The notes under the pieces: model-generated
What the model saw: only the letters and a program-made list of their open reading frames with translations
Databases searched by the model: none
Told to the model about the DNA's origin: nothing
Assembly (NCBI GenBank): GCA_050485185.1
Contig: JBJHAW010000003.1
Span: 27,653 to 91,652 of the forward strand
DNA length: 64,000 nucleotides
DNA from: Planctomycetaceae bacterium
GTDB taxonomy: Bacteria > Planctomycetota > Planctomycetia > Planctomycetales > Planctomycetaceae
Direction: 5' to 3'
Shown here: positions 3,739 to 61,567 of the stretch, piece after piece
Position numbering within the stretch: position 1 is the first letter of the stretch
How the letters are laid out: every line of letters starts with the position of its first letter
Translations under genes and position numbers: made by a program

Positions 3739-5073
3739 TTAACAGGCTTTCAGAGCCCGGGTTAAGCGGGCGATTCCCTCGGCGAGTTGAGTCTCGTTCT
3801 GGACGCCGAAACTGAGGCGCATAGTGCGCGAGGCCTCTGGGTGATCGCGGTCCGCATAGAACAGTTCCCCCGGCACATACATGACTTGTTCGCGATTGAC
3901 GCATGCGTGAAACAGAGGCCCATCGAACCGGGTGTTGCAAGCCTCGGTCTGCGGCAGAGTCAGCCAGACATACAGTCCTCCGTTCGGCCAAGTGGCGGAA
4001 ACGCCGGGCATATCGAGAATTTCCTGCTGAAGCGCTTCCCAGATGGCGTTCCGCTTGCTTTCGTAAGAGGTCCGTAACCGCGCGACGTGTTGCTGGTAGC
4101 GCCCCGTGCGAATCAGATCGAGCACCAGGAATTGGGCTAGGTGGGGCGATCCGAAATCGTGCACCGACTTCAAATCCGTGACCGGCTTGACCAGTGCCGA
4201 GGGAAGAATTCCCCAACCGGTGCGCAGCCCCGGGGCCAGCGATTTTGAGAAGGTTTGCGTGAGGATCACCCGTTCCCCAGAGTCATCAAGCAACAGGCTT
4301 GAGGGGGCCGGGGCAGACTCGAACCACAACTCGCGGTAAGCGGCATCTTCCAGCAAATAGATGTACTGGCGGTCCGACCAGTGTTCAAGCACGCCCAGCA
4401 GGTCTCGCTTGCGTTGCTCCGAGAGACTGGCTCCACGTGGATTATCGAAGTAGGAGACCAAGTACAACAGCTTGACCCGCTGGAGTTCACCCGTTTCCTG
4501 GAATTGTTCGAGTTGCTTATTCAGTGCGGCGGGGAGCATCCCCTGTTCATCGCAATCCACTCCCACGGCCTGGACACCGGCGGCTTCCAGAGTGCTCAGA
4601 TACACGAAATACGTCGGGTTGCCCACCAGGCAGATGTCTCCGGGATTCAACACCGCTTGCGTGACCAGATCGAGAAACTGCTGCGACCCGGTGGTGATCA
4701 GGCAGCGTTCGACGGGGATTGTCCAGTCCCCAGGCGAGCCCCCTTCCAATTCGCGGAGGTACTCAAGCAGAGTCCGTCGCAATTCCAGGGAACCAGATGT
4801 GGTGCCATACTGCAGTGCTTGCCGGGCCAGGGAGGGATCGCTCAATAAACGTTCCATTCCCACGCGAGCGGCCGTGATCGGCAGAGAATCGTAATCGACC
4901 AGGCCAGCCGCCAGCGATAAACAGTCCGGATGATCGACTCCCTGCTGCATGAGATAGCCGATCTGCTGCCGAGCCGCCCAGGCTCCACGCAAACTCCCCG
5001 GTGTCTCTCCGGTTGCAAATCCCGAGGAGGCCTCCTTGACTAACGCTGGCTGTGTGTCGTCCGAATTTTTCAT
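3739..5073 (-). CDS. PLP-dependent class I/II aminotransferase (LysN/ARO8-like)
   Basis: LQYGTTSG, ITTGSQQFLDL, YFDNPRG, EDAAYREL, TFSKSLAPGLRTGW (PLP lysine). Confidence 0.88.
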   Translation of the reverse strand: MKNSDDTQPALVKEASSGFATGETPGSLRGAWAARQQIGYLMQQGVDHPDCLSLAAGLVDYDSLPITAARVGMERLLSDPSLARQALQYGTTSGSLELRRTLLEYLRELEGGSPGDWTIPVERCLITTGSQQFLDLVTQAVLNPGDICLVGNPTYFVYLSTLEAAGVQAVGVDCDEQGMLPAALNKQLEQFQETGELQRVKLLYLVSYFDNPRGASLSEQRKRDLLGVLEHWSDRQYIYLLEDAAYRELWFESAPAPSSLLLDDSGERVILTQTFSKSLAPGLRTGWGILPSALVKPVTDLKSVHDFGSPHLAQFLVLDLIRTGRYQQHVARLRTSYESKRNAIWEALQQEILDMPGVSATWPNGGLYVWLTLPQTEACNTRFDGPLFHACVNREQVMYVPGELFYADRDHPEASRTMRLSFGVQNETQLAEGIARLTRALKAC

Positions 5074-53286: not shown

Positions 53287-54273
53287 TTAAACCTCGAGCA
53301 GGACGCCTCCCCACGACAGCCCCGCACCAAACCCCAGCAATAACAGTCGGTCTCCCGGTTGTACTCGCCGTTTACGATACAATTCGTCCAAGGCGATCGG
53401 CACACTCCCTGCCATCGTGTTCCCGTACTGATCGATGTTGATCACCACCCGGTCCTCGGGGATCCCCAGTTGACTGGCGGATTCCAGCAGGATGTTGCGA
53501 TTGGCCTGGTGGGGAATCAACCAGTCGATCTCCCGCGGCAAGATACCGGCCTCAGCACACAATTGCCGGACGGTTTCGGGGAAGACACGCGTCGCGAATT
53601 GCCAAATCGCCTTGCCATCCATCTGCATGGTCCCTCCCACCGGGACACTCAGCGGTTCGTCATCCCCCTCGGAATAGACTTGACTGGCGAGCACTCGACC
53701 GGAACCACCTGTTCCCAACACCACAGCCCCTGCCCCGTCGCCAAAGAAAATCGAAGTTAACCGATCCGCGGGATTCACCAGGCGGGTCCCGAGGTCAACT
53801 CCTACCACCAAAGCCGTCTGCACGCCCGTCTGAAAATATCGGACAGCCACATCGAACGCGGTGACGAACCCATTGCAGGCATTCACAACATCAAACGCCA
53901 TCGCCCGCCGGGCACACAGATTCCGTTGCAGCAAACAAGCCGTGGCGGGCATGGTGTAATCGGGAGTGGAGGTTGCCACAATAAACAACTCGACATCTTG
54001 CGGAGTAATTCCACTTCGCTCCAGCGCCGTCAAAGCGGCTTCCGTCGCCAAGTCACTCGCGCGCACCCCCGCCTCGGCTACCCGCCGCCGTTCAATTCCC
54101 GTCTTGCTCACGACCCACTCCGCCGAGGTCTCCAATGCATTTCGCTGAATCAACTCCGCATTAGAAACTCGCCCCACAGGCAAACCGGCCCCAGTCCCCA
54201 GAATGTTCACTCCTGCACACCAGCGCCCCCGTGCCGAATGCACTTTTCCCCGTACCCGCAAATCCCCCATCAT
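53287..54273 (-). CDS. fabH: 3-oxoacyl-ACP synthase III (FabH/KAS III family)
   Basis: Cys-His-Asn triad: DVVNACNGF, PHQAN, YGNT; FFGDGAGA, GFGAGLSWG; role in primary fatty-acid synthesis not established. Confidence 0.88.
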   Translation of the reverse strand: MMGDLRVRGKVHSARGRWCAGVNILGTGAGLPVGRVSNAELIQRNALETSAEWVVSKTGIERRRVAEAGVRASDLATEAALTALERSGITPQDVELFIVATSTPDYTMPATACLLQRNLCARRAMAFDVVNACNGFVTAFDVAVRYFQTGVQTALVVGVDLGTRLVNPADRLTSIFFGDGAGAVVLGTGGSGRVLASQVYSEGDDEPLSVPVGGTMQMDGKAIWQFATRVFPETVRQLCAEAGILPREIDWLIPHQANRNILLESASQLGIPEDRVVINIDQYGNTMAGSVPIALDELYRKRRVQPGDRLLLLGFGAGLSWGGVLLEV

Positions 54274-54597
54274 CTCCCACTCCTACTGAATCTAAAGAGT
54301 GCCAGCATTCAACTCCAGACTCAGCAAACCTACGCCATCCTCGCCTCAACCCCAGTAAATTCTCCCCATTCCCTTGCTCCCACTGTACCAATCCCGGCAA
54401 AAAAACCGCTTGTAGCGATTACGCCAATCAGCGGAGAGCCAGGCAAAGCCTTGTGAAATCAGTACATTCCCCCCAGCATGTTTATTTTTCTTAATGTGTC
54501 TTTACCCCGCCCATTGCCTGGAAATTCATAAAATGCTTGATTAAAGTGCATCAGTCGATTTGCGTGCGCCAGTGGAGGCGCATCTACTTTTGGGGAT

Positions 54598-54614
54598 TTG
54601 GCCAAAAATTTGCG
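54598..54614 (+). promoter_or_regulatory. Sigma-54 (-24/-12)-like promoter
   Basis: TTGG-CCAAAAATTT-GCG: GG at 54600-01 and GC at 54612-13, exactly 10 nt apart. Confidence 0.45.
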
Positions 54615-54632
54615 ACCACAATGGAGATACAC

Positions 54633-55784
54633 ATGAGTTCTCATCGCTTGAAAAGAGGGATTTGCGGATTGGCCTTCATTCTGATCTCAATTTTTGCACC
54701 CGTCCCTTCGCCTAACAGCGGTATGATTTGGGGGCAAGTGGCTCCACCACCTGAGACTTTACCAGAGCCGAATTTACGCGAGGAAATACGAAACTCATTT
54801 ATTCACATACATGGTGGGTTGCAACAACTCAATGAAGCTATTGAAAAGAACAGTAAGATCCTTGAACGAATCGAGAAAAAACTGGGCGAGACGGGTCCCA
54901 AGCCTGGGGCAGGCGCAGCGACTCCAGCAGCAGACGATCAGGAAGGAGATCAGCCGACCATCACGCGAGCTGATAAGGTGCACGTCATTCTGATTTGCGA
55001 CACTCAAGATAGCGATCTTGGAGTGGGTTTCGGAGCAGGGCAATCGATGATGTCAGACTTACTTGCCGATCAAGGGGGTTGCCTCAATGAAGATGGAACC
55101 CAGTTAAATCCGAGTGTGATGATCATCAATGGGGCGTTATGCAGAGCGTCGATTGTAAGGAATCGGATTACCAGTAGTAATCCTGCACTGCAGGTTGGCA
55201 AGAATGATACGGTATTTTGCTATATTGCTTGCCATGGTTACTTCTCTCCAAGCGATGGACAAATATTTGACTTTTTTCATGACAGACAGCAAGATCGTCT
55301 GTTGAGGTCCAGGCTGTTTGGATTGCTGAAAAGCCTGGGAGCCCGACAAACGATACTTATCAGTGATTCCTGCACTGCGTTTGTCCGAGATACGCAGGCA
55401 TCGAGTGCAGCCCGGGCAGCCGTCTTACCCTCAGCTGTGACAAAAACAGACTACCTCTGCATGCTATTGTATTTCGGGCGTGGAGACATCAGCATCAGCG
55501 CTTGCGAAATCCCCAGCGATCGCAACAACCCGGGTCAATTTTCCTGGTATCCCACAGGCCGGGAGGGCATTTTCACCACGGCTTTTGTCCAGCATGCAAA
55601 ATACTTGCCACCCAAGCCTGGCAGAGTTGTTAACTGGAATCATTTTTTCCAGAGTGTGCAGAATACAACAAGGCTAGAAATGGAAGGAATTATACGAACC
55701 ACGGGAGTGAATCTACCCATAGGATACAGGCATATAAATCGTGCAGATGTAAGGCAGATACCGACATGGGTACTCGGGAACTGA
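54633..55784 (+). CDS. Probably exported caspase-fold (clan CD, peptidase C14-like) cysteine protease with N-terminal coiled coil
   Basis: GGAG RBS; signal-like N-terminus; TVFCYIACHG (His codon 55233) and ILISDSC (Cys codon 55371); GQFS...GIFTTAF and terminal QIP motifs. Confidence 0.75.
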   Translation: MSSHRLKRGICGLAFILISIFAPVPSPNSGMIWGQVAPPPETLPEPNLREEIRNSFIHIHGGLQQLNEAIEKNSKILERIEKKLGETGPKPGAGAATPAADDQEGDQPTITRADKVHVILICDTQDSDLGVGFGAGQSMMSDLLADQGGCLNEDGTQLNPSVMIINGALCRASIVRNRITSSNPALQVGKNDTVFCYIACHGYFSPSDGQIFDFFHDRQQDRLLRSRLFGLLKSLGARQTILISDSCTAFVRDTQASSAARAAVLPSAVTKTDYLCMLLYFGRGDISISACEIPSDRNNPGQFSWYPTGREGIFTTAFVQHAKYLPPKPGRVVNWNHFFQSVQNTTRLEMEGIIRTTGVNLPIGYRHINRADVRQIPTWVLGN

Positions 55785-55887
55785 TAGCAGGCAGTTGCTA
55801 GCCAAGCTTGCGTAAACCATTTGGAGAAAATCAGCAGATCGAGTCGGTTGTCGGCCTTTGTTATTTTGTAGTATTCAGGAGCGAATC

Positions 55888-56325
55888 ATGAAAAAACTGC
55901 TTGTACTCACTCTTCTGCTCAGCCTGTTACTGGTGACGGGAAGCGTAGAAGCCAATTACCGCTTTCGCATGCAAATCCGTGGACGGGGTCCCATGTTGCC
56001 ATTCGCACCAGCCCCGATGTTTCTGGTTCAGCCCCCCAGTCAAGTACACCAGCGAGACCAGTCTCATGAGGACTCGTTATCCAGAATTGCCCGCAGGCCT
56101 GTGGATACCTCTCGCTTCCGGGACACCCTGAATCACACGCGTGTCATCCTGACTAAATTGAACATCGAAGAAGACACCTACCCTGAAATGCAGACCATTG
56201 AGCGCCGACTGGCCAATTTACAGGAGGAAACCGGTGGTGATCGAAGGTTTATCCCTCAGGAGGTCATCTCGATCAATCCCGATCAAGGTGACATCCTGAT
56301 TCCGAGCAACTTCAGAACGAGATAG
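55888..56325 (+). CDS. Secreted hypothetical protein (145 aa)
   Basis: AGGAG RBS; MKKLLVLTLLLSLLLVTGSVEA signal peptide; Pro-rich segment; short heptad IERRLANLQEE. Confidence 0.75.
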   Translation: MKKLLVLTLLLSLLLVTGSVEANYRFRMQIRGRGPMLPFAPAPMFLVQPPSQVHQRDQSHEDSLSRIARRPVDTSRFRDTLNHTRVILTKLNIEEDTYPEMQTIERRLANLQEETGGDRRFIPQEVISINPDQGDILIPSNFRTR

Positions 56326-56374
56326 AAAGTTTACGTTTCGTCTCAGGCAATGAGTAATCGACTGTACCGATTAT

Positions 56375-56407
56375 GCGGCTCGGCTTAACAGCCGAGCCGC
56401 TTTTTTT
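56375..56407 (+). terminator. Intrinsic terminator
   Basis: gcggctcggct-taac-agccgagccgc-ttttttt. Confidence 0.85.
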
Positions 56408-56506
56408 GGGTCTGATGCCTATTGAGGTAACAATGTGTGCACGTGAAGCCGATTCCAGTACAGAGACTTGGAGCATGTTAAATCATCTCGCCGAAGGGGC
56501 TGAGTT

Positions 56507-57043
56507 ATGGGACGCGTGGCAATCTGGGGGCTTTGTCTGGGGACTGTGCTGATCCTTTCAGAACCGCAAGCGGCTGCACAGCAAAGATTCTGTTTTGACA
56601 TGCCCTCTTGTCAAACCTCCCAATCCTGCAATCGGGGTGGAGATCAGGGATGTGGTCGCTGCTGTAAGATCATCATGCGACGCAACGTTTTTGGCTCGAC
56701 TTGCTTTGGACCACCGGCTCCCGCTGCAGGCGTGGTCGTTTCCAGCGTCCCGGCTTTGACGGTAGCCACTCCTGCCCTTCCGCTCTCTTTTGGAGCGGTC
56801 TCTGCGGGGGGGATGTCTGAAAGTGACGTTGCCCGGGTTGCTGCCGCCGCCGCCCGAGATGTGCTGGCTGCGTCAGGAGGGGATCGTGCGGGGGCAGCCT
56901 CTGCCGGGGCAGTCAGCAATCGCTGCGATGATCCTTGCGCCGACATTAAGCAACTGCAACACGATGTGGAACATCTCAGGCAAATCACAAGGAATCTAGC
57001 TGTCGCAGTAGATGCTTTAGTGGACCGGCTGAATAACGAATGA
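56507..57043 (+). CDS. Secreted hypothetical protein: Cys-rich head, Ala-rich linker, CDDPC + C-terminal coiled coil
   Basis: Signal peptide ending AAA; IKQLQHDVEHLRQITRNL heptads. Confidence 0.75.
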   Translation: MGRVAIWGLCLGTVLILSEPQAAAQQRFCFDMPSCQTSQSCNRGGDQGCGRCCKIIMRRNVFGSTCFGPPAPAAGVVVSSVPALTVATPALPLSFGAVSAGGMSESDVARVAAAAARDVLAASGGDRAGAASAGAVSNRCDDPCADIKQLQHDVEHLRQITRNLAVAVDALVDRLNNE

Positions 57044-57168
57044 GCAGGAGCTGAAAATTCGCTCGCCGAGTTTCCAAGGTCGCATTCTGGCACACAGATT
57101 CCAATTGATAGAAATCACTATATATCCCCTCTGGGAAACAAGAAGCATTCCACCAGGGAAGGTTGGTT

Positions 57169-58170
57169 ATGTGTGGGTTGAAGCCTGAATACTGTTTTGC
57201 AGCCATTGTTTGCAGTGCTTGTTTTCTGGGAGAGATGAGCCACGCGCAAACTCGCCAGTCGAACATGCGACACTGCGTACAACAGCCCTGTGTGCCGGAG
57301 GTTTATCCGGCTCCTGGGGAACCAGTCACGGCAGCACCGGGGCGGCCTCAAGAGGAGCCTCAGGCTGATCAGCCAATGTATGCGGCACCGGCTCCGCCTG
57401 CGATGTATGTGGCTCCTTCCCCGAGTGGCGAGCGGGTCGGGGAAACGCGGTCGTTTGGTCTGCCGGAAATCACATTCACGCTCCCCTCGCTGTCCTTCAG
57501 CACTCCTGGAATCCGCATTCAGGGATTCCGTCGTGGCGTGCGTGATTCTCACATGCGGCTTGATTCCGCCTACGCTCCCCAGACGGCCGGCCAACCTGCA
57601 GTCTATGGCCAGTTGATGGGGGCGACCGTTGGGCAAGTCCATGCGGCTGCGCCGATGAGCGCATCTGCTGGTGGCCCGCGCGATCCCGATTCAGCAGGTG
57701 CAGCCACTCGGCAAGATCGAGATGAGGAACCAGCATCCCCCGCCACTGCGCCTCCACGTGCTCCGGGATACTATCGGGATCCTTGCTCGCACGTGGAGGG
57801 GGCAGCTTCAGAACTTTATTCAGCACAGCAAGAACTGCAGCAACTCAGGCTACAACTGGAATTGCTGCAGCGACAAATTGAAAGTCGTCAGCAGGAGTTG
57901 AACTCCCAGGCCAACCAGTCAAGTCAGCCACCAGCACCTCAACACATTCAGCAGGCCGCCGCGCACTCTTTTCACACAGGCCCTCAGCAACCAGCGCCCC
58001 ACCCCATGATGCTGCAGGAACAGGCTCGACAATTGCCACCTGAAACTCAACGCATTCTGGAAGCACAAAAACAGCGCGAAGCTGCAGAAGCCGCCTTTGA
58101 GTCATACGAACAGAAAAACCCCGCGCCCAAAGGTTGGAAACGCATGCTGCCAACGGGTTTGTTTCCCTGA
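57169..58170 (+). CDS. Secreted hypothetical protein: Pro-rich, beta-rich segment, DPC + Gln-rich coiled coil
   Basis: GGAAGG RBS; signal-like N-terminus ending SHA; LPEITFTLPSLSFSTPGIRIQG; QQELQQLRLQLELLQRQIE. Confidence 0.75.
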   Translation: MCGLKPEYCFAAIVCSACFLGEMSHAQTRQSNMRHCVQQPCVPEVYPAPGEPVTAAPGRPQEEPQADQPMYAAPAPPAMYVAPSPSGERVGETRSFGLPEITFTLPSLSFSTPGIRIQGFRRGVRDSHMRLDSAYAPQTAGQPAVYGQLMGATVGQVHAAAPMSASAGGPRDPDSAGAATRQDRDEEPASPATAPPRAPGYYRDPCSHVEGAASELYSAQQELQQLRLQLELLQRQIESRQQELNSQANQSSQPPAPQHIQQAAAHSFHTGPQQPAPHPMMLQEQARQLPPETQRILEAQKQREAAEAAFESYEQKNPAPKGWKRMLPTGLFP

Positions 58171-58241: not shown

Positions 58242-59081
58242 CTAGCGACGCGGAGTTTGTGTTCGGATCTCGGTTGGAAAAATCACGGATCTTCCCTGAT
58301 CGGCAGAGACGCGCAAGTGGTCCAGGGGAATCCAGCACATGAGGTCTTCGCGAAATGTGCCGCCAATGAAGGGCATGCAGTGTGCCTCTCCTCCCCGGAT
58401 CTCCATGCACTTGACGATTTGCCGACCTGGAATCGTGACCGGGATACCGGAATCCTTAGCTATTTGGATGTCTTGAGTCAGTTCATAGACTTCCCCCGCC
58501 TTGTATTGGGGCCCCTCTGGTTGTGTTAGGCGGACTGAGGGGGTCTGCTCCAGACCTGGGCGCCTGAAGGTCGCTCCTGGGATTGGTCTGGGCGTCTCCC
58601 CGGTGGCATGGTGCTGGGGGCTTACTCGTGTTGGCAAATGATCACCTCTCCGGGGAGGAGACCACTCAGAAAGTTCGTGATCGTAGTCTCGTCCTGAGGG
58701 CCTGGCTGTCGAGGGAATCAGGGTGTTGTAAACCGCCTCAAAGTTCTCAATTCTTACCACGTCCTGCTTGGCAACCCAGCCGATTCGAGGTTGCGTCCCA
58801 GGTACGATAGCAACGATGTAATCTTGATTGCTTCCTTCTTCAAATACGACAGTCCCCGCCGGTAACTCCGGGGACGTCTCTCCCTCTGGGAGTTGGATAC
58901 GCTTTCGTGTTTTAAAATCATGCTCCCAGAACTTGGTGTTCTGCGTGGTGACCCACAATCTGTCGGGACCAAATATCATCCCCTCTTGGGCCATTGCAAG
59001 CGGGCTCGTAATGAAGCCAACCATCAAAGTCGTAACGAGCAATATCCCGCTGAGCCCTGATTTGTTACAGATCATGATCAT
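58242..59081 (-). CDS. Secreted hypothetical protein with two putative SH3-like domains
   Basis: Signal peptide ending AMA; LPAGTVVF...RIGWVAKQDV and PGRQIV...MCWIPLDHL resemble SH3b C-termini. Confidence 0.55.
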   Translation of the reverse strand: MIMICNKSGLSGILLVTTLMVGFITSPLAMAQEGMIFGPDRLWVTTQNTKFWEHDFKTRKRIQLPEGETSPELPAGTVVFEEGSNQDYIVAIVPGTQPRIGWVAKQDVVRIENFEAVYNTLIPSTARPSGRDYDHELSEWSPPRRGDHLPTRVSPQHHATGETPRPIPGATFRRPGLEQTPSVRLTQPEGPQYKAGEVYELTQDIQIAKDSGIPVTIPGRQIVKCMEIRGGEAHCMPFIGGTFREDLMCWIPLDHLRVSADQGRSVIFPTEIRTQTPRR

Positions 59082-59314: not shown

Positions 59315-59944
59315 TCAGTCTTTTATCAGCTGCACGAGTTGGGGGAGGGCGGATTGAAATGCGCGGGCGCGGTGGCTGAGGGTTTGTTTGATGATGGGGG
59401 GGAGTTCGCCGAAGGTTTGGTGGTATTCGCGGATCAGAAAGTAGGGGTCGTAGCCGAAGCCATGGGTGCCGCGGGGGATGCGGGTGATTAAACCATGGCA
59501 GGTCCTTTCCACGGCCAGGCGGATTTCACCGGTCGGGTCGGCCAGGGCCAAGTGGCTGACGTAGTGGGCCGTTCGCTGGGAATCGGGGATGTCGTGCAGG
59601 CGTTCCAGCAGCAGGGCGTTGTTGGATTCGTCGGTCGCCTGCGGTCCACTGAAGCGGGCGGAGTAAATGCCGGGGGCTCCTTGCAAAGCGTCCACACACA
59701 GTCCGCTGTCCTCGCCGATGGCCCAGTGTGCGGTGGCCCGTGCGGTTTCTCGAGCTTTTTTGGCCGCGTTTTCTGCGAAGGTGGTGCCGTCCTCGTCCAC
59801 CTCTGGCACTTCGGGAAAGTCTGCTGCACACAATACCCGGATGCCATGCGGACGCAGCAATTCCTCCATTTCACGGACTTTTTTCGCATTCCGACTGGCC
59901 AGCACCAGCGTGGGAGGAGAGTCTGAAACTGCGGAGTTTGTCAT
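59315..59944 (-). CDS. rdgB: Non-canonical purine NTP pyrophosphatase (RdgB/Ham1)
   Basis: LASRNAKK, EDGTTFAENAAKKA, EDSGL, APGIYSAR, GFGYDP, LSHRARA. Confidence 0.95.
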   Translation of the reverse strand: MTNSAVSDSPPTLVLASRNAKKVREMEELLRPHGIRVLCAADFPEVPEVDEDGTTFAENAAKKARETARATAHWAIGEDSGLCVDALQGAPGIYSARFSGPQATDESNNALLLERLHDIPDSQRTAHYVSHLALADPTGEIRLAVERTCHGLITRIPRGTHGFGYDPYFLIREYHQTFGELPPIIKQTLSHRARAFQSALPQLVQLIKD

Positions 59945-60037
59945 GTTGAGTGGTTGATTAATCGTTTGTTTTGGGGCGTTTGCGTTTGGCTGTCCGAATT
60001 GATGATTCAGACTGGAGTTTTGCGTTAGAGTCTCACT

Positions 60038-60179
60038 CCGTAACATGCGCGCGTCGTGCGCGCATGTTGCAAGTCCTTCTTGTGCGAAATATCCTGTACG
60101 ACGGACTTCTAGTCCGTCGCTTACAAGCTCCGACGGACTAGAAGTCCGTCGTACATGGTTGCGGTGTTGCCGCGTTAGG
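60038..60179. repeat. Inverted REP doublet family D, copy 2
   Basis: Same 24-bp REP pair (60096-60119 / 60131-60154) and flanks as 50314-50502. Confidence 0.85.
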
Positions 60180-60215: not shown

Positions 60216-61283
60216 TCATGGAGTGGTTTGCTCGTCGGTGCGGGCGGCTAGATCGTTGGCGGTTTTCAGGATTTCCTGGATCGGAACGGTGAAGGTATCC
60301 GTGCGGCCGGCCCGAGCGATGTTTACGCCGACCAGTTCCCCGTTGAGGTTGACCACCGGTCCGCCACAATGGCGAGGATGCATGAGTGTGTCGTGCTGAA
60401 ACACGCTGCGGAATCCAGTGCGGCGGGGTGAAACATCGCTGCCGAAACGGTTCATGAGGGCCTGGCGGTCCACGGATTTGTCCCAGGAGACACCAATCCG
60501 CAGATGCACATCCCGGATTACTCCCTCGCGTGAAGCATGAAAACTCCACCAGTCTCCCGGTTCGAGTTCCTTCAATTTCTGTTCCAGTAGAGTCCGCTTG
60601 TGCATGGGGGAATCGGGGGTTTCGTACAGGAGATCCCCTTTCCTGATGCCGGCCTGAGAAGCCCCGCTGTTCGCCAGGACTTGAGTCACCAGCAGACCAT
60701 CCGCAGTTTCTTCCACGGCCATGCCCAGATAACCAGACGAGGTGGCAATTTCCCGAGGCTGAGCCCCCAATACTCCTACCCCCAAGGGGAGGCGTTCTTC
60801 GAAACCGAGAGAAATGACCCATTGGCCGGGCTTGAGTTCCTGCGCGATGGGGACTTCCTCTGGTAAACGTGCCCGCGACTCCAGCTCAAGAAAGACCAAA
60901 TCGAGTTCTGGTTCATATCCGACATACCGGGCAGCGACCCACTCTTCCACGGAGATGCGACAGCGGAATTCATCCTTGGGCAATACCACCTTGCCCATTT
61001 CACTGGCCTTGGCGACCACCCAACCCCGAACCGAGTCGATGAGAGTCCCCGGGATGGTGTGACCGCTATTGATTTCCACCTGCAACGCCAACACTCGCGT
61101 CTCAGTGATCAGTTCCCGGAAGGCTTCCTTCAACTTCACTCCGTGACGGGTCGCTTCCTGTTCCAGGATGTCGGCTGCATGCACATGTCCCCGAGGAGCC
61201 ATGGCCAGCATCCCCGATAAGACGACACAGAAAACCAACAACGGCAGAACCAGCCTGCCTTGGCGAGATGGCTTGGTGGTCAT
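60216..61283 (-). CDS. Secreted trypsin-like (S1C/HtrA-like) protein with internal PDZ domain
   Basis: Signal peptide; DLVFLEL, GYLGM...VTQVLANSGASQAGIRKGD (PDZ), CGGPVVNLNGELVGVN. Confidence 0.75.
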   Translation of the reverse strand: MTTKPSRQGRLVLPLLVFCVVLSGMLAMAPRGHVHAADILEQEATRHGVKLKEAFRELITETRVLALQVEINSGHTIPGTLIDSVRGWVVAKASEMGKVVLPKDEFRCRISVEEWVAARYVGYEPELDLVFLELESRARLPEEVPIAQELKPGQWVISLGFEERLPLGVGVLGAQPREIATSSGYLGMAVEETADGLLVTQVLANSGASQAGIRKGDLLYETPDSPMHKRTLLEQKLKELEPGDWWSFHASREGVIRDVHLRIGVSWDKSVDRQALMNRFGSDVSPRRTGFRSVFQHDTLMHPRHCGGPVVNLNGELVGVNIARAGRTDTFTVPIQEILKTANDLAARTDEQTTP

Positions 61284-61567
61284 GATGCGAGTCTTCTCCG
61301 GAAAACATCTAGGCTGAAACATGCAGAACTTCCCCCATCAGAGCGAGGATTGAGCCGCCTGCGAAATCGCGTGCGCGTGGACACTGAATTATACCCCGCC
61401 TCCTTGAGTAGGGACGAGTCCCGGCTTGTGTCGGAAGCGATTTTTCTGGAAAGTCCCTTGGGGGACTGGTCGTGAAATGACTGTCCGAGTTGTGCCCCGA
61501 CTGAAACCCGGATCACACGCATATTCGCTTGGTCAGAAAGGCAGGCGGGAGCACTGCCCTACTTTCC

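Follow-up and report, generated by a model that had tools for sequence, protein, structure and literature searches.

Within a 64,000-nucleotide stretch of DNA from a Planctomycetaceae bacterium (hereafter the window), positions 54,633 to 58,170 carry four genes, g1 to g4, the first of which encodes an exported protease with a caspase fold and the other three secreted proteins. The association of this protease with g3 and g4 recurs across genera, and the three together are probably a real envelope proteolysis module. The locus itself would then probably comprise two adjacent, co-regulated units of a Planctomycetaceae-specific envelope module. As to function, we give about an even chance to the reading that an accessory exported caspase-like peptidase processes or regulates a secreted envelope coiled-coil complex made of g3 and g4. 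An earlier note on this DNA had described four co-oriented genes, and all four open reading frames are indeed present on the plus strand. The features on which the argument draws are as follows (lengths in amino acids, aa; pLDDT, predicted local distance difference test).

54633..55784, plus strand: g1, 383 aa, exported C14-like clan CD cysteine peptidase with a caspase fold
54633..54740 (residues 1-36), plus strand: g1 signal peptide or signal anchor, basic HRLKR and then hydrophobic ICGLAFILISIFAPV
54774..54890 (residues 48-86), plus strand: g1 long amphipathic helix (AlphaFold2 pLDDT ~77-83), a 'prodomain' or docking stalk
54909..54923, plus strand: AGAAT motif in the g1 linker before the catalytic domain, found also at g3 residue 128 and g4 residue 178
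54969..55703 (residues ~113-357), plus strand: g1 catalytic domain, with His201 at 55233-55235 and Cys247 at 55371-55373
55888..56325, plus strand: g2, 145 aa, small secreted orphan with a C-terminal amphipathic helix
56375..56407 (hairpin 56375-56400), plus strand: intrinsic terminator in the g2-g3 interval
56507..57043, plus strand: g3, 178 aa, secreted, with a Cys-rich N-terminus
57163/57169..58170, plus strand: g4, 335/333 aa, secreted; the start is possibly ATG 57169
57376-57627, plus strand: g4 conserved 83-residue core, from the core alignment
57784-57921, plus strand: g4 long helix, from AlphaFold2

An exported protease of the caspase fold

The caspase fold that the earlier note had read into g1 was borne out by structural comparison. 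Using an AlphaFold2 model of g1 (mean pLDDT 68.6, core blocks 84-94), a Foldseek search of the PDB returned top 50 matches that all belong to clan CD, with E-values from 3.9e-5, a probability of 1.00 and target-normalised template modelling scores of up to 0.59; the targets are caspase-3/7/1/4/11, MALT1, metacaspase-9, legumain and the GPI transamidase complex. The predicted dyad is likewise present, as H201-G202 and D245-S246-C247 with a His-Cys spacing of 46 residues. These residues are invariant or nearly so across homologues, are kept in all linked relatives, and lie in the model and the alignment at the strand ends expected for a clan CD fold; one distant paralogue (G006b) has lost both catalytic residues. 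The catalytic domain presents its strands and motifs in the order VHVILICDTQD / NDTVFCYIACHG / ARQTILISDSC / EGIFTTAF, and the loop that follows the Cys is conserved and modelled with low confidence. An acidic residue stands two positions before the Cys in every linked relative (D, or E in the genus labelled g39), which by analogy with metacaspases suggests a basic (Arg/Lys) P1 preference.

In sequence space g1 lies at the edge of its family. It scores 13.0 bits against Pfam PF00656 (E 0.083), under the gathering cutoff of 21.4, and the family is matched by 8/14 aligned homologues (E<=0.1; best 1.7e-8); because g1 itself is sub-cutoff and reaches PF00656 through its homologues only, it is filed here as a divergent C14-like subfamily. 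A profile of the catalytic domain found metacaspase-9 as its best PDB match (E 0.006), followed by metacaspase-1, metacaspase-4 and MALT1. This search replaced one made with a whole-protein profile, which was dominated by the PDZ domains of homologues. A phmmer search of the PDB with g1 directly gave no significant match, the NCBIfam model 'caspase_w_EACC1' matched g1 at a non-significant E of 0.086, and two relatives of g1 show weak Pfam C25 matches (E 0.0055). A word-based search among 5.8 billion proteins added just two relatives, and a whole-genome search found homologues, 25-34% identical, in 12/200 other genomes of the family. Four of the aligned family members carry C-terminal PDZ domains, which are found in several cousins whose genes are not linked to g3 and g4. 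Periplasmic proteases such as DegP have C-terminal PDZ domains too.

The earlier note had also given all four proteins export-type N-termini. Judged by eye, as signal peptides were throughout, this holds, with g1 and g4 less canonical than the other two. The g1 start at ATG 54633 is kept in the 60%-identical homologue of L001, a metagenome-assembled genome (MAG), and an upstream TTG extension is not. The protein begins with an N-in hydrophobic segment (model helix 10-21) that has no clear AXA site and may, from its sequence, serve as a signal anchor; clear signal peptides are present in seven other clade members. The helical segment expected before the protease domain was recovered by AlphaFold2 as the helix at residues 48-86, separated from the catalytic domain by a disordered linker (88-107). 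The relatives of g1 have N-terminal coiled coils too, of very different lengths. Exported or N-terminally anchored prokaryotic metacaspase homologues, those of Planctomycetes included, were catalogued bioinformatically in 2012 (PMC3501461); an exported caspase-like protease per se is not new, and g1 is a divergent member of a known family type.

Linkage of the protease to the g3 and g4 families

We surveyed one sample of 401 Planctomycetia genomes, with gene neighbourhoods taken from the sampled genomes only. The g4 core was found in 19/401 of them (16 from Planctomycetaceae, 3 from a second family of the class), and the protease profile was matched in 137/401 at a cutoff of E<=1e-5, which also admits weak generic C14-like matches. 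Six of the 19 (the window's genome G000, Planctomicrobium piriforme G141, and G002, G038, G156 and G111) have the protease within ~3.5 kb of g4; they span four genera, linked genomes of one genus not being independent of each other. Further linked cases are L001, where the genes are adjacent, and, probably, G145, in which a contig edge interrupts the cluster. The protease and the g3-g4 genes share a direction in G000 and G141 and are divergent in G002, G145, G038, G156 and G111, genus g39 included. Across the four genera the linked proteases are 20-34% identical at the protein level. In a maximum-likelihood tree of the catalytic domain, a branch with support 87/88 separates eight linked proteases, together with that of the metagenome contig P0003, from nine unlinked ones, a clustering unmatched in 500 label shuffles. 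The association is thus old and has been kept through rearrangements, which argues for functional coupling of the protease with g3-g4. The earlier note's expectation that the partners would be conserved beside homologous proteases accordingly stood for g3 and g4 (the six genomes, L001 and G145); g2 is an orphan.

It is highly unlikely that the adjacency is due to chance or purely to history, with no shared function among the four genes. Planctomycete genomes abound in secreted hypothetical proteins, and g2 and its convergent neighbour g5 are lineage-specific; both points would fit such a reading. Against it, chance adjacency is estimated at ~0.1-0.4% per genome, so that 6/19 compares with an expectation of less than 0.4% each, the genes are linked in either of two orientations, and the proteases concerned form a monophyletic group.

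None of g2, g3 and g4 matches a Pfam or NCBIfam family. The Sec signals of g2 (..VEA/N) and g3 (..AAA/Q) are canonical; that of g4 (..SHA/Q) is weaker, and those of its homologues are canonical. The short segments singled out in the earlier note were located as PMFLVQP in g2, VVVSSVPALTVATP in g3 and ITFTLPSLSFSTP in g4. For g2 a single homologue, in L001, was found among 5.8 billion proteins. Positional analogues of g2 lie 3' of the protease in G141 and G145 and have no detectable homology to it; homology between g2 and the G141 analogue was considered and rejected (hhalign probability 0.4%, the likeness stopping at the signal peptide).

Aligned members of the g3 family have in common a signal peptide, an N-terminus rich in Cys, the segment APPxAxVVxSVPA and a helix at the C-terminus, the last reading CDDPCxDIKQLQxDV in g3 and xDPCxDIKQLQxDV in its family form; g3 also has an Ala-rich linker. 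A g3-like gene lies immediately 5' of g4 in most loci examined, with a 4-nt overlap in two. Often a third secreted helical or coiled-coil gene stands 5' of g3, in the position of g2, and the proteins encoded there have no detectable homology to one another. We also compared g3 and g4 as possible paralogues; at an hhalign probability of 11%, with a weak coiled-coil likeness, they are not demonstrable paralogues.

The g4 protein consists of a CxxxxC motif, a Pro/Ala-rich region, the 83-residue core, a disordered linker and a long helix. The core consensus is GExxGESxSxGxRG..RIPE..LELP..QLPSF.R.RR..EM..DSARAP..G..A.YGQ, and AlphaFold2 predicts a four-strand meander for part of it, at residues 97-120, and a helix at 208-253 (pLDDT >90), the remainder being disordered. 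An exhaustive profile search of 1.84 billion entries with the core yielded 491 clusters at E<=1e-3 and 349 at E<=1e-10, the clusters being 50% identity representatives; an alignment of three g4 sequences had found no relatives in a scan of genome contigs. Members of the family are typically 260-480 aa long and have a signal peptide followed by a Cys-rich stretch, signal peptides being present in ~119/145 listed representatives. The named members examined are all from Planctomycetota. Public annotation of g3- and g4-type proteins is 'hypothetical protein' in the named members examined, and one automatic 'Smc' name is owed to the coiled coil. Giant eukaryotic AHNAK-like repeat proteins also match the meander motif (..LPxhxhxLPxh..), P0004 over 23 stretches and P0019 over 11; this is probably a convergent repeat similarity.

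A further trait joins the protease to g3 and g4 in the window. The five-residue motif AGAAT is common to g1, g3 and g4, which was equalled in 0-1/5000 composition-preserving shuffles, and it is kept, as AGAA[ST], in L001. Outside the window's lineage, the same analysis gave shared motifs that were not significant or found none that were shared.

In genus g39 the linked protease is followed directly by an unannotated protein of ~250 aa whose conserved region starts near the N-terminus with MCCF.. (L025 6418-7170, L141 5380-6114, L142 5100-5927, L147 2082-2876). This protein, which has no Pfam match, also adjoins a trypsin-like protease near g4 in G051.

Transcription units, neighbouring genes and alternative readings

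The earlier note had taken the four genes for a single system. The neighbourhood is real, but a terminator between g2 and g3 divides it into two transcription units, g1-g2 and g3-g4. In the hairpin, 9 of the 11 base pairs of the stem are GC, and T7 follows (folding free energy, dG, -24.2 kcal/mol; z -6.0). Hairpins occupy the same position in L001 (dG -14.2) and in P. piriforme, the sequence of the latter being unrelated (dG -21.2, z -5.1). Upstream of it, g2 is probably co-transcribed with g1. Downstream, the intergenic stretch 56420-56506 appears by eye to be highly conserved against L001 3235-3321, seemingly above synonymous sites (synonymous divergence, dS, ~0.45), and contains the palindromic TGTGCACGTG. 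Judging from its sequence, this region is probably the promoter or 5' leader of g3-g4. Matches to sigma-70-type promoters were not commoner than in shuffled sequence, and Rfam gave no match at the locus.

The division bears on one alternative, in which g1, as a housekeeping protease of the periplasm or envelope in general, shares regulation with g3-g4 without acting on g2-g4. We regard it as somewhat unlikely. It would account for a protease family as widespread as the one counted here (137/401), most members of which sit in other contexts, PDZ domains and different partner genes among them, as well as for the terminators that part the units and for the 13/19 g3-g4 genomes that lack the protease. 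It accords poorly with the linked proteases forming a clade of their own and with an adjacency that survives inversion of gene order in four genera, both of which speak for a protease acting with g3-g4.

Gene order from g1 to g5 is identical in L001, with protein identities of 60% (g1), 84% (g2), 91% (g3), 87% (g4) and 63% (g5). The ratio of nonsynonymous to synonymous substitution rates (dN/dS) in this comparison is 0.40 for g1, 0.16 for g2, 0.056 for g3, 0.16 for g4 and 0.37 for g5, and ~0.09-0.10 for flanking housekeeping genes. By these values all five open reading frames are genuine genes, with fast evolution in g1 and g5 and tight constraint on g3. The G+C content of the g1-g2 stretch (54500-56000) is 48-50%, that of the flanks 55-58%, and the cluster is missing from four genomes of the same genus, which together suggest horizontal acquisition.

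Two relatives have a serpin gene beside the protease. The P. piriforme gene, for a secreted SH3+serpin protein (Pfam Serpin 1.5e-50), stops 25 nt 5' of the protease gene, and on contig P0003 a homologous SH3-serpin lies divergently 5' of it (E 3e-17 for the serpin pair). The sole serpin of the window's genome is unlinked, an SH3_3+serpin protein at L154 4418-6028 (contig C47). It has the same architecture as the other two, with a reactive loop of about ..GVT/SAPV, and from its lipobox-like HLSGC it is probably a lipoprotein. No serpin adjoins the protease in the window or in the genera labelled g39 and g3, and 4/7 linked genomes searched lack serpins altogether. Serpins are established suicide, cross-class inhibitors of caspases and metacaspases (PMC2213432, PMC2064784, PMC10609998).

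These neighbours raise the alternative of a conflict module, with g1 as an antagonistic effector or toxin, the SH3-serpin, secreted or a lipoprotein, as its immunity protein and g2-g4 as unrelated neighbours or accessories. A secreted serpin beside the protease in two relatives would suit this, as would the dN/dS of g1, the lower G+C content of g1-g2 and the absence of the cluster from the four same-genus genomes. We nevertheless think it quite unlikely: g1 has only a Sec-type N-terminus and no toxin-delivery domain, PADLOC gave no match for g1-g5 or the P. piriforme serpin, the window protease has no serpin beside it, and the clade-wide linkage to g3-g4 would be left unexplained.

A different protease occupies the neighbourhood of some other g4 genes. 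A trypsin/NAL1-like serine protease is encoded within a few kb of g4 at no fewer than nine loci that have no caspase-like gene nearby, among them L146 8591-9769, L147 3228-4301, L152 ~4000-5050, L052 3298-4503, L055 3789-5021, L059 9317-10585, L058 10778-11998 and L144 685-1650. Its catalytic His and the Ser of its GDSG motif do not vary, there is a candidate Asp, and its N-terminus is Lys/Ala-rich with no signal peptide; at E<=1e-10 it was not found in G000, G141, G038 or G111. This pattern hints that caspase-like and trypsin/NAL1-like enzymes are alternative protease partners; since the latter has no export signal, ancestral synteny may be all that the pattern shows.

The assembly to which the window belongs, through its contig C3, comprises 183 contigs and 6.0 Mb; its host is a Rubinisphaera-like planctomycete, placed in the Planctomycetaceae by GlgC similarity. 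The module is flanked by the following genes.

53287-54273, minus strand: KAS III (FabH-like) gene, left flank
58242..59081, minus strand: g5, a convergent secreted protein, doubtful as a member of the module
59315-60046, minus strand: Ham1/RdgB gene, right flank

The g5 protein has a canonical signal peptide, is conserved in L001 only, was not found at the other linked loci and bears no similarity to the SH3-serpin of the relatives. Contigs matched through GlgC (UBA2671 as the nearest, 75%; Schlesneria, 66-68%) showed no synteny beyond glgC, and the FabH homologues of the same genus are taken as paralogues because their identity is just 38-40%. Further along the minus strand, 60216-61322 encodes an exported Trypsin_2 protein with a PDZ domain in which the usual GDSGG apparently reads HCGGP; on this sequence it may be a Ser-to-Cys variant or a pseudo-protease.

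Proposed mechanism and comparison with known systems

Based on these observations, we propose that g3 and g4, once exported by the Sec pathway, would assemble through coiled coils into a hetero-oligomer located in the periplasm or cell envelope. Both proteins have an N-terminus rich in Cys and Pro, a short beta-type segment that is conserved, a disordered linker rich in Ala and Pro, and an amphipathic helix at the C-terminus. The g1 peptidase, exported or membrane-anchored, would dock onto these partners via its helices and cut them in flexible regions, for which the Ala-rich linkers and RxRR, a near-invariant dibasic motif that directly follows the beta-meander of g4, are candidate sites. Such cleavage would mature, remodel or remove the g3-g4 complex. 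A peptidase of the g1 type could thus be an optional regulator that some lineages have added to a module working without one elsewhere, and in some relatives the secreted SH3-serpin encoded beside the peptidase might restrain it. Complex formation, cleavage, specificity and cellular role are all steps that we infer.

A number of observations weigh against this proposal. The strong terminator separates the protease from its supposed partners. There is no adjacent caspase-like gene in 13/19 g4-bearing genomes, which include four other species of the window's genus whose g4 is ~31-34% identical to that of the window; the protease must on this count be accessory and not core, with g3-g4 an independent module. 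RxRR is conserved to the same degree where g4 has no protease beside it, and so gives no specific evidence for cleavage. The usual P1 residues of clan CD are Arg, Lys, Asp and Asn; AGAA[ST] contains none of them, and it is absent from the other linked loci examined (three other genera). The dN/dS of 0.40 for g1 against 0.06-0.16 for g3/g4 could indicate a different selective regime, for example conflict. Finally, the reactive loops of the serpins, read by eye, have a small Ser/Thr near P1, a misfit with an Arg-specific target.

A bolder version of the proposal can also be put forward, which we consider unlikely. Here g3-g4 and the variable third helical protein would build a planctomycete-specific envelope lattice or scaffold, perhaps as part of the Cys/Pro-rich proteinaceous wall, whose assembly is set by lineage-recruited proteases of unrelated folds, caspase-like in the window and trypsin/NAL1-like in other Rubinisphaera and relatives; the caspase-like enzyme would perhaps be a sortase-like transpeptidase under the control of the SH3-serpin. 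PorU and GPI8 are clan CD transpeptidases.

We found no description of the g1 clade or of the partner families in the literature, and the g3 and g4 families and their linkage to the protease appear to be undescribed. The earlier note, which knew of no description, was to that extent right about the partner families and the linkage; exported metacaspase homologues have been known since 2012. We know of no exported bacterial caspase homologue with an assigned substrate or role. The g1 clade offers candidate substrates encoded by its neighbours and, in the SH3-serpin, a candidate natural inhibitor, and at least one cultured host, Planctomicrobium piriforme, has the full cluster. Two unannotated secreted families, g3 and g4, are defined here; they may prove relevant to the cell envelope of planctomycetes, which is poorly understood. 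Should the function prove to be ordinary periplasmic turnover, the value of this work would lie mainly in better annotation.

The earlier note had drawn an analogy with the Fap operon of Pseudomonas, which likewise has the gene of a periplasmic cysteine peptidase beside genes of secreted non-enzymatic proteins. This functional parallel stands, but the folds differ, FapD being a C39 papain-like enzyme (clan CA) and g1 having a caspase fold, and the partners match no Pfam family. Moreover, g2-g4 have no amyloid-type imperfect repeats, the g4 model is mostly disordered and helical, and among the neighbouring genes examined none was identified as encoding a FapF-type outer-membrane channel. For the fibre, amyloid or budding structure that the note had envisaged, nothing tested gave support.

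The closest mechanistic precedent may be, by analogy, the type V pili of Porphyromonas gingivalis, where a clan CD enzyme of family C25, the Arg-gingipain, trims FimA/Mfa1 precursors that have been exported and so enables them to polymerise. Both systems have an extracytoplasmic clan CD cysteine peptidase, with a basic P1 that is probable for g1, and secreted subunits that are candidate substrates. They differ in that the gingipain is C25 and g1 C14-like, and that FimA/Mfa1 have two beta-sandwich domains where g3-g4 have disorder and coiled coil; g2-g4 also have neither a lipobox nor a type IX secretion system context, and cleavage is here a proposal.

With the catalogued C14 metacaspase/orthocaspase homologues (PMC3501461), g1 has in common the caspase/hemoglobinase fold, the HG...D-x-C signature with an acidic residue two positions ahead of the Cys, and one hydrophobic helix at the N-terminus, which is predicted to put the domain outside the cytoplasm; it differs from them in its coiled-coil stalk and in the fixed neighbourhood of two unannotated secreted proteins that its Planctomycetaceae clade has. 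The serpin gene beside a caspase-fold protease in P. piriforme and on contig P0003 recalls the pairs AtSerpin1-AtMC9 and CrmA or PI-9 with caspase-1, but in the planctomycetes both proteins are exported and bacterial, the serpin has an N-terminal SH3 domain, and its predicted P1 residue is small, not Arg or Asp.

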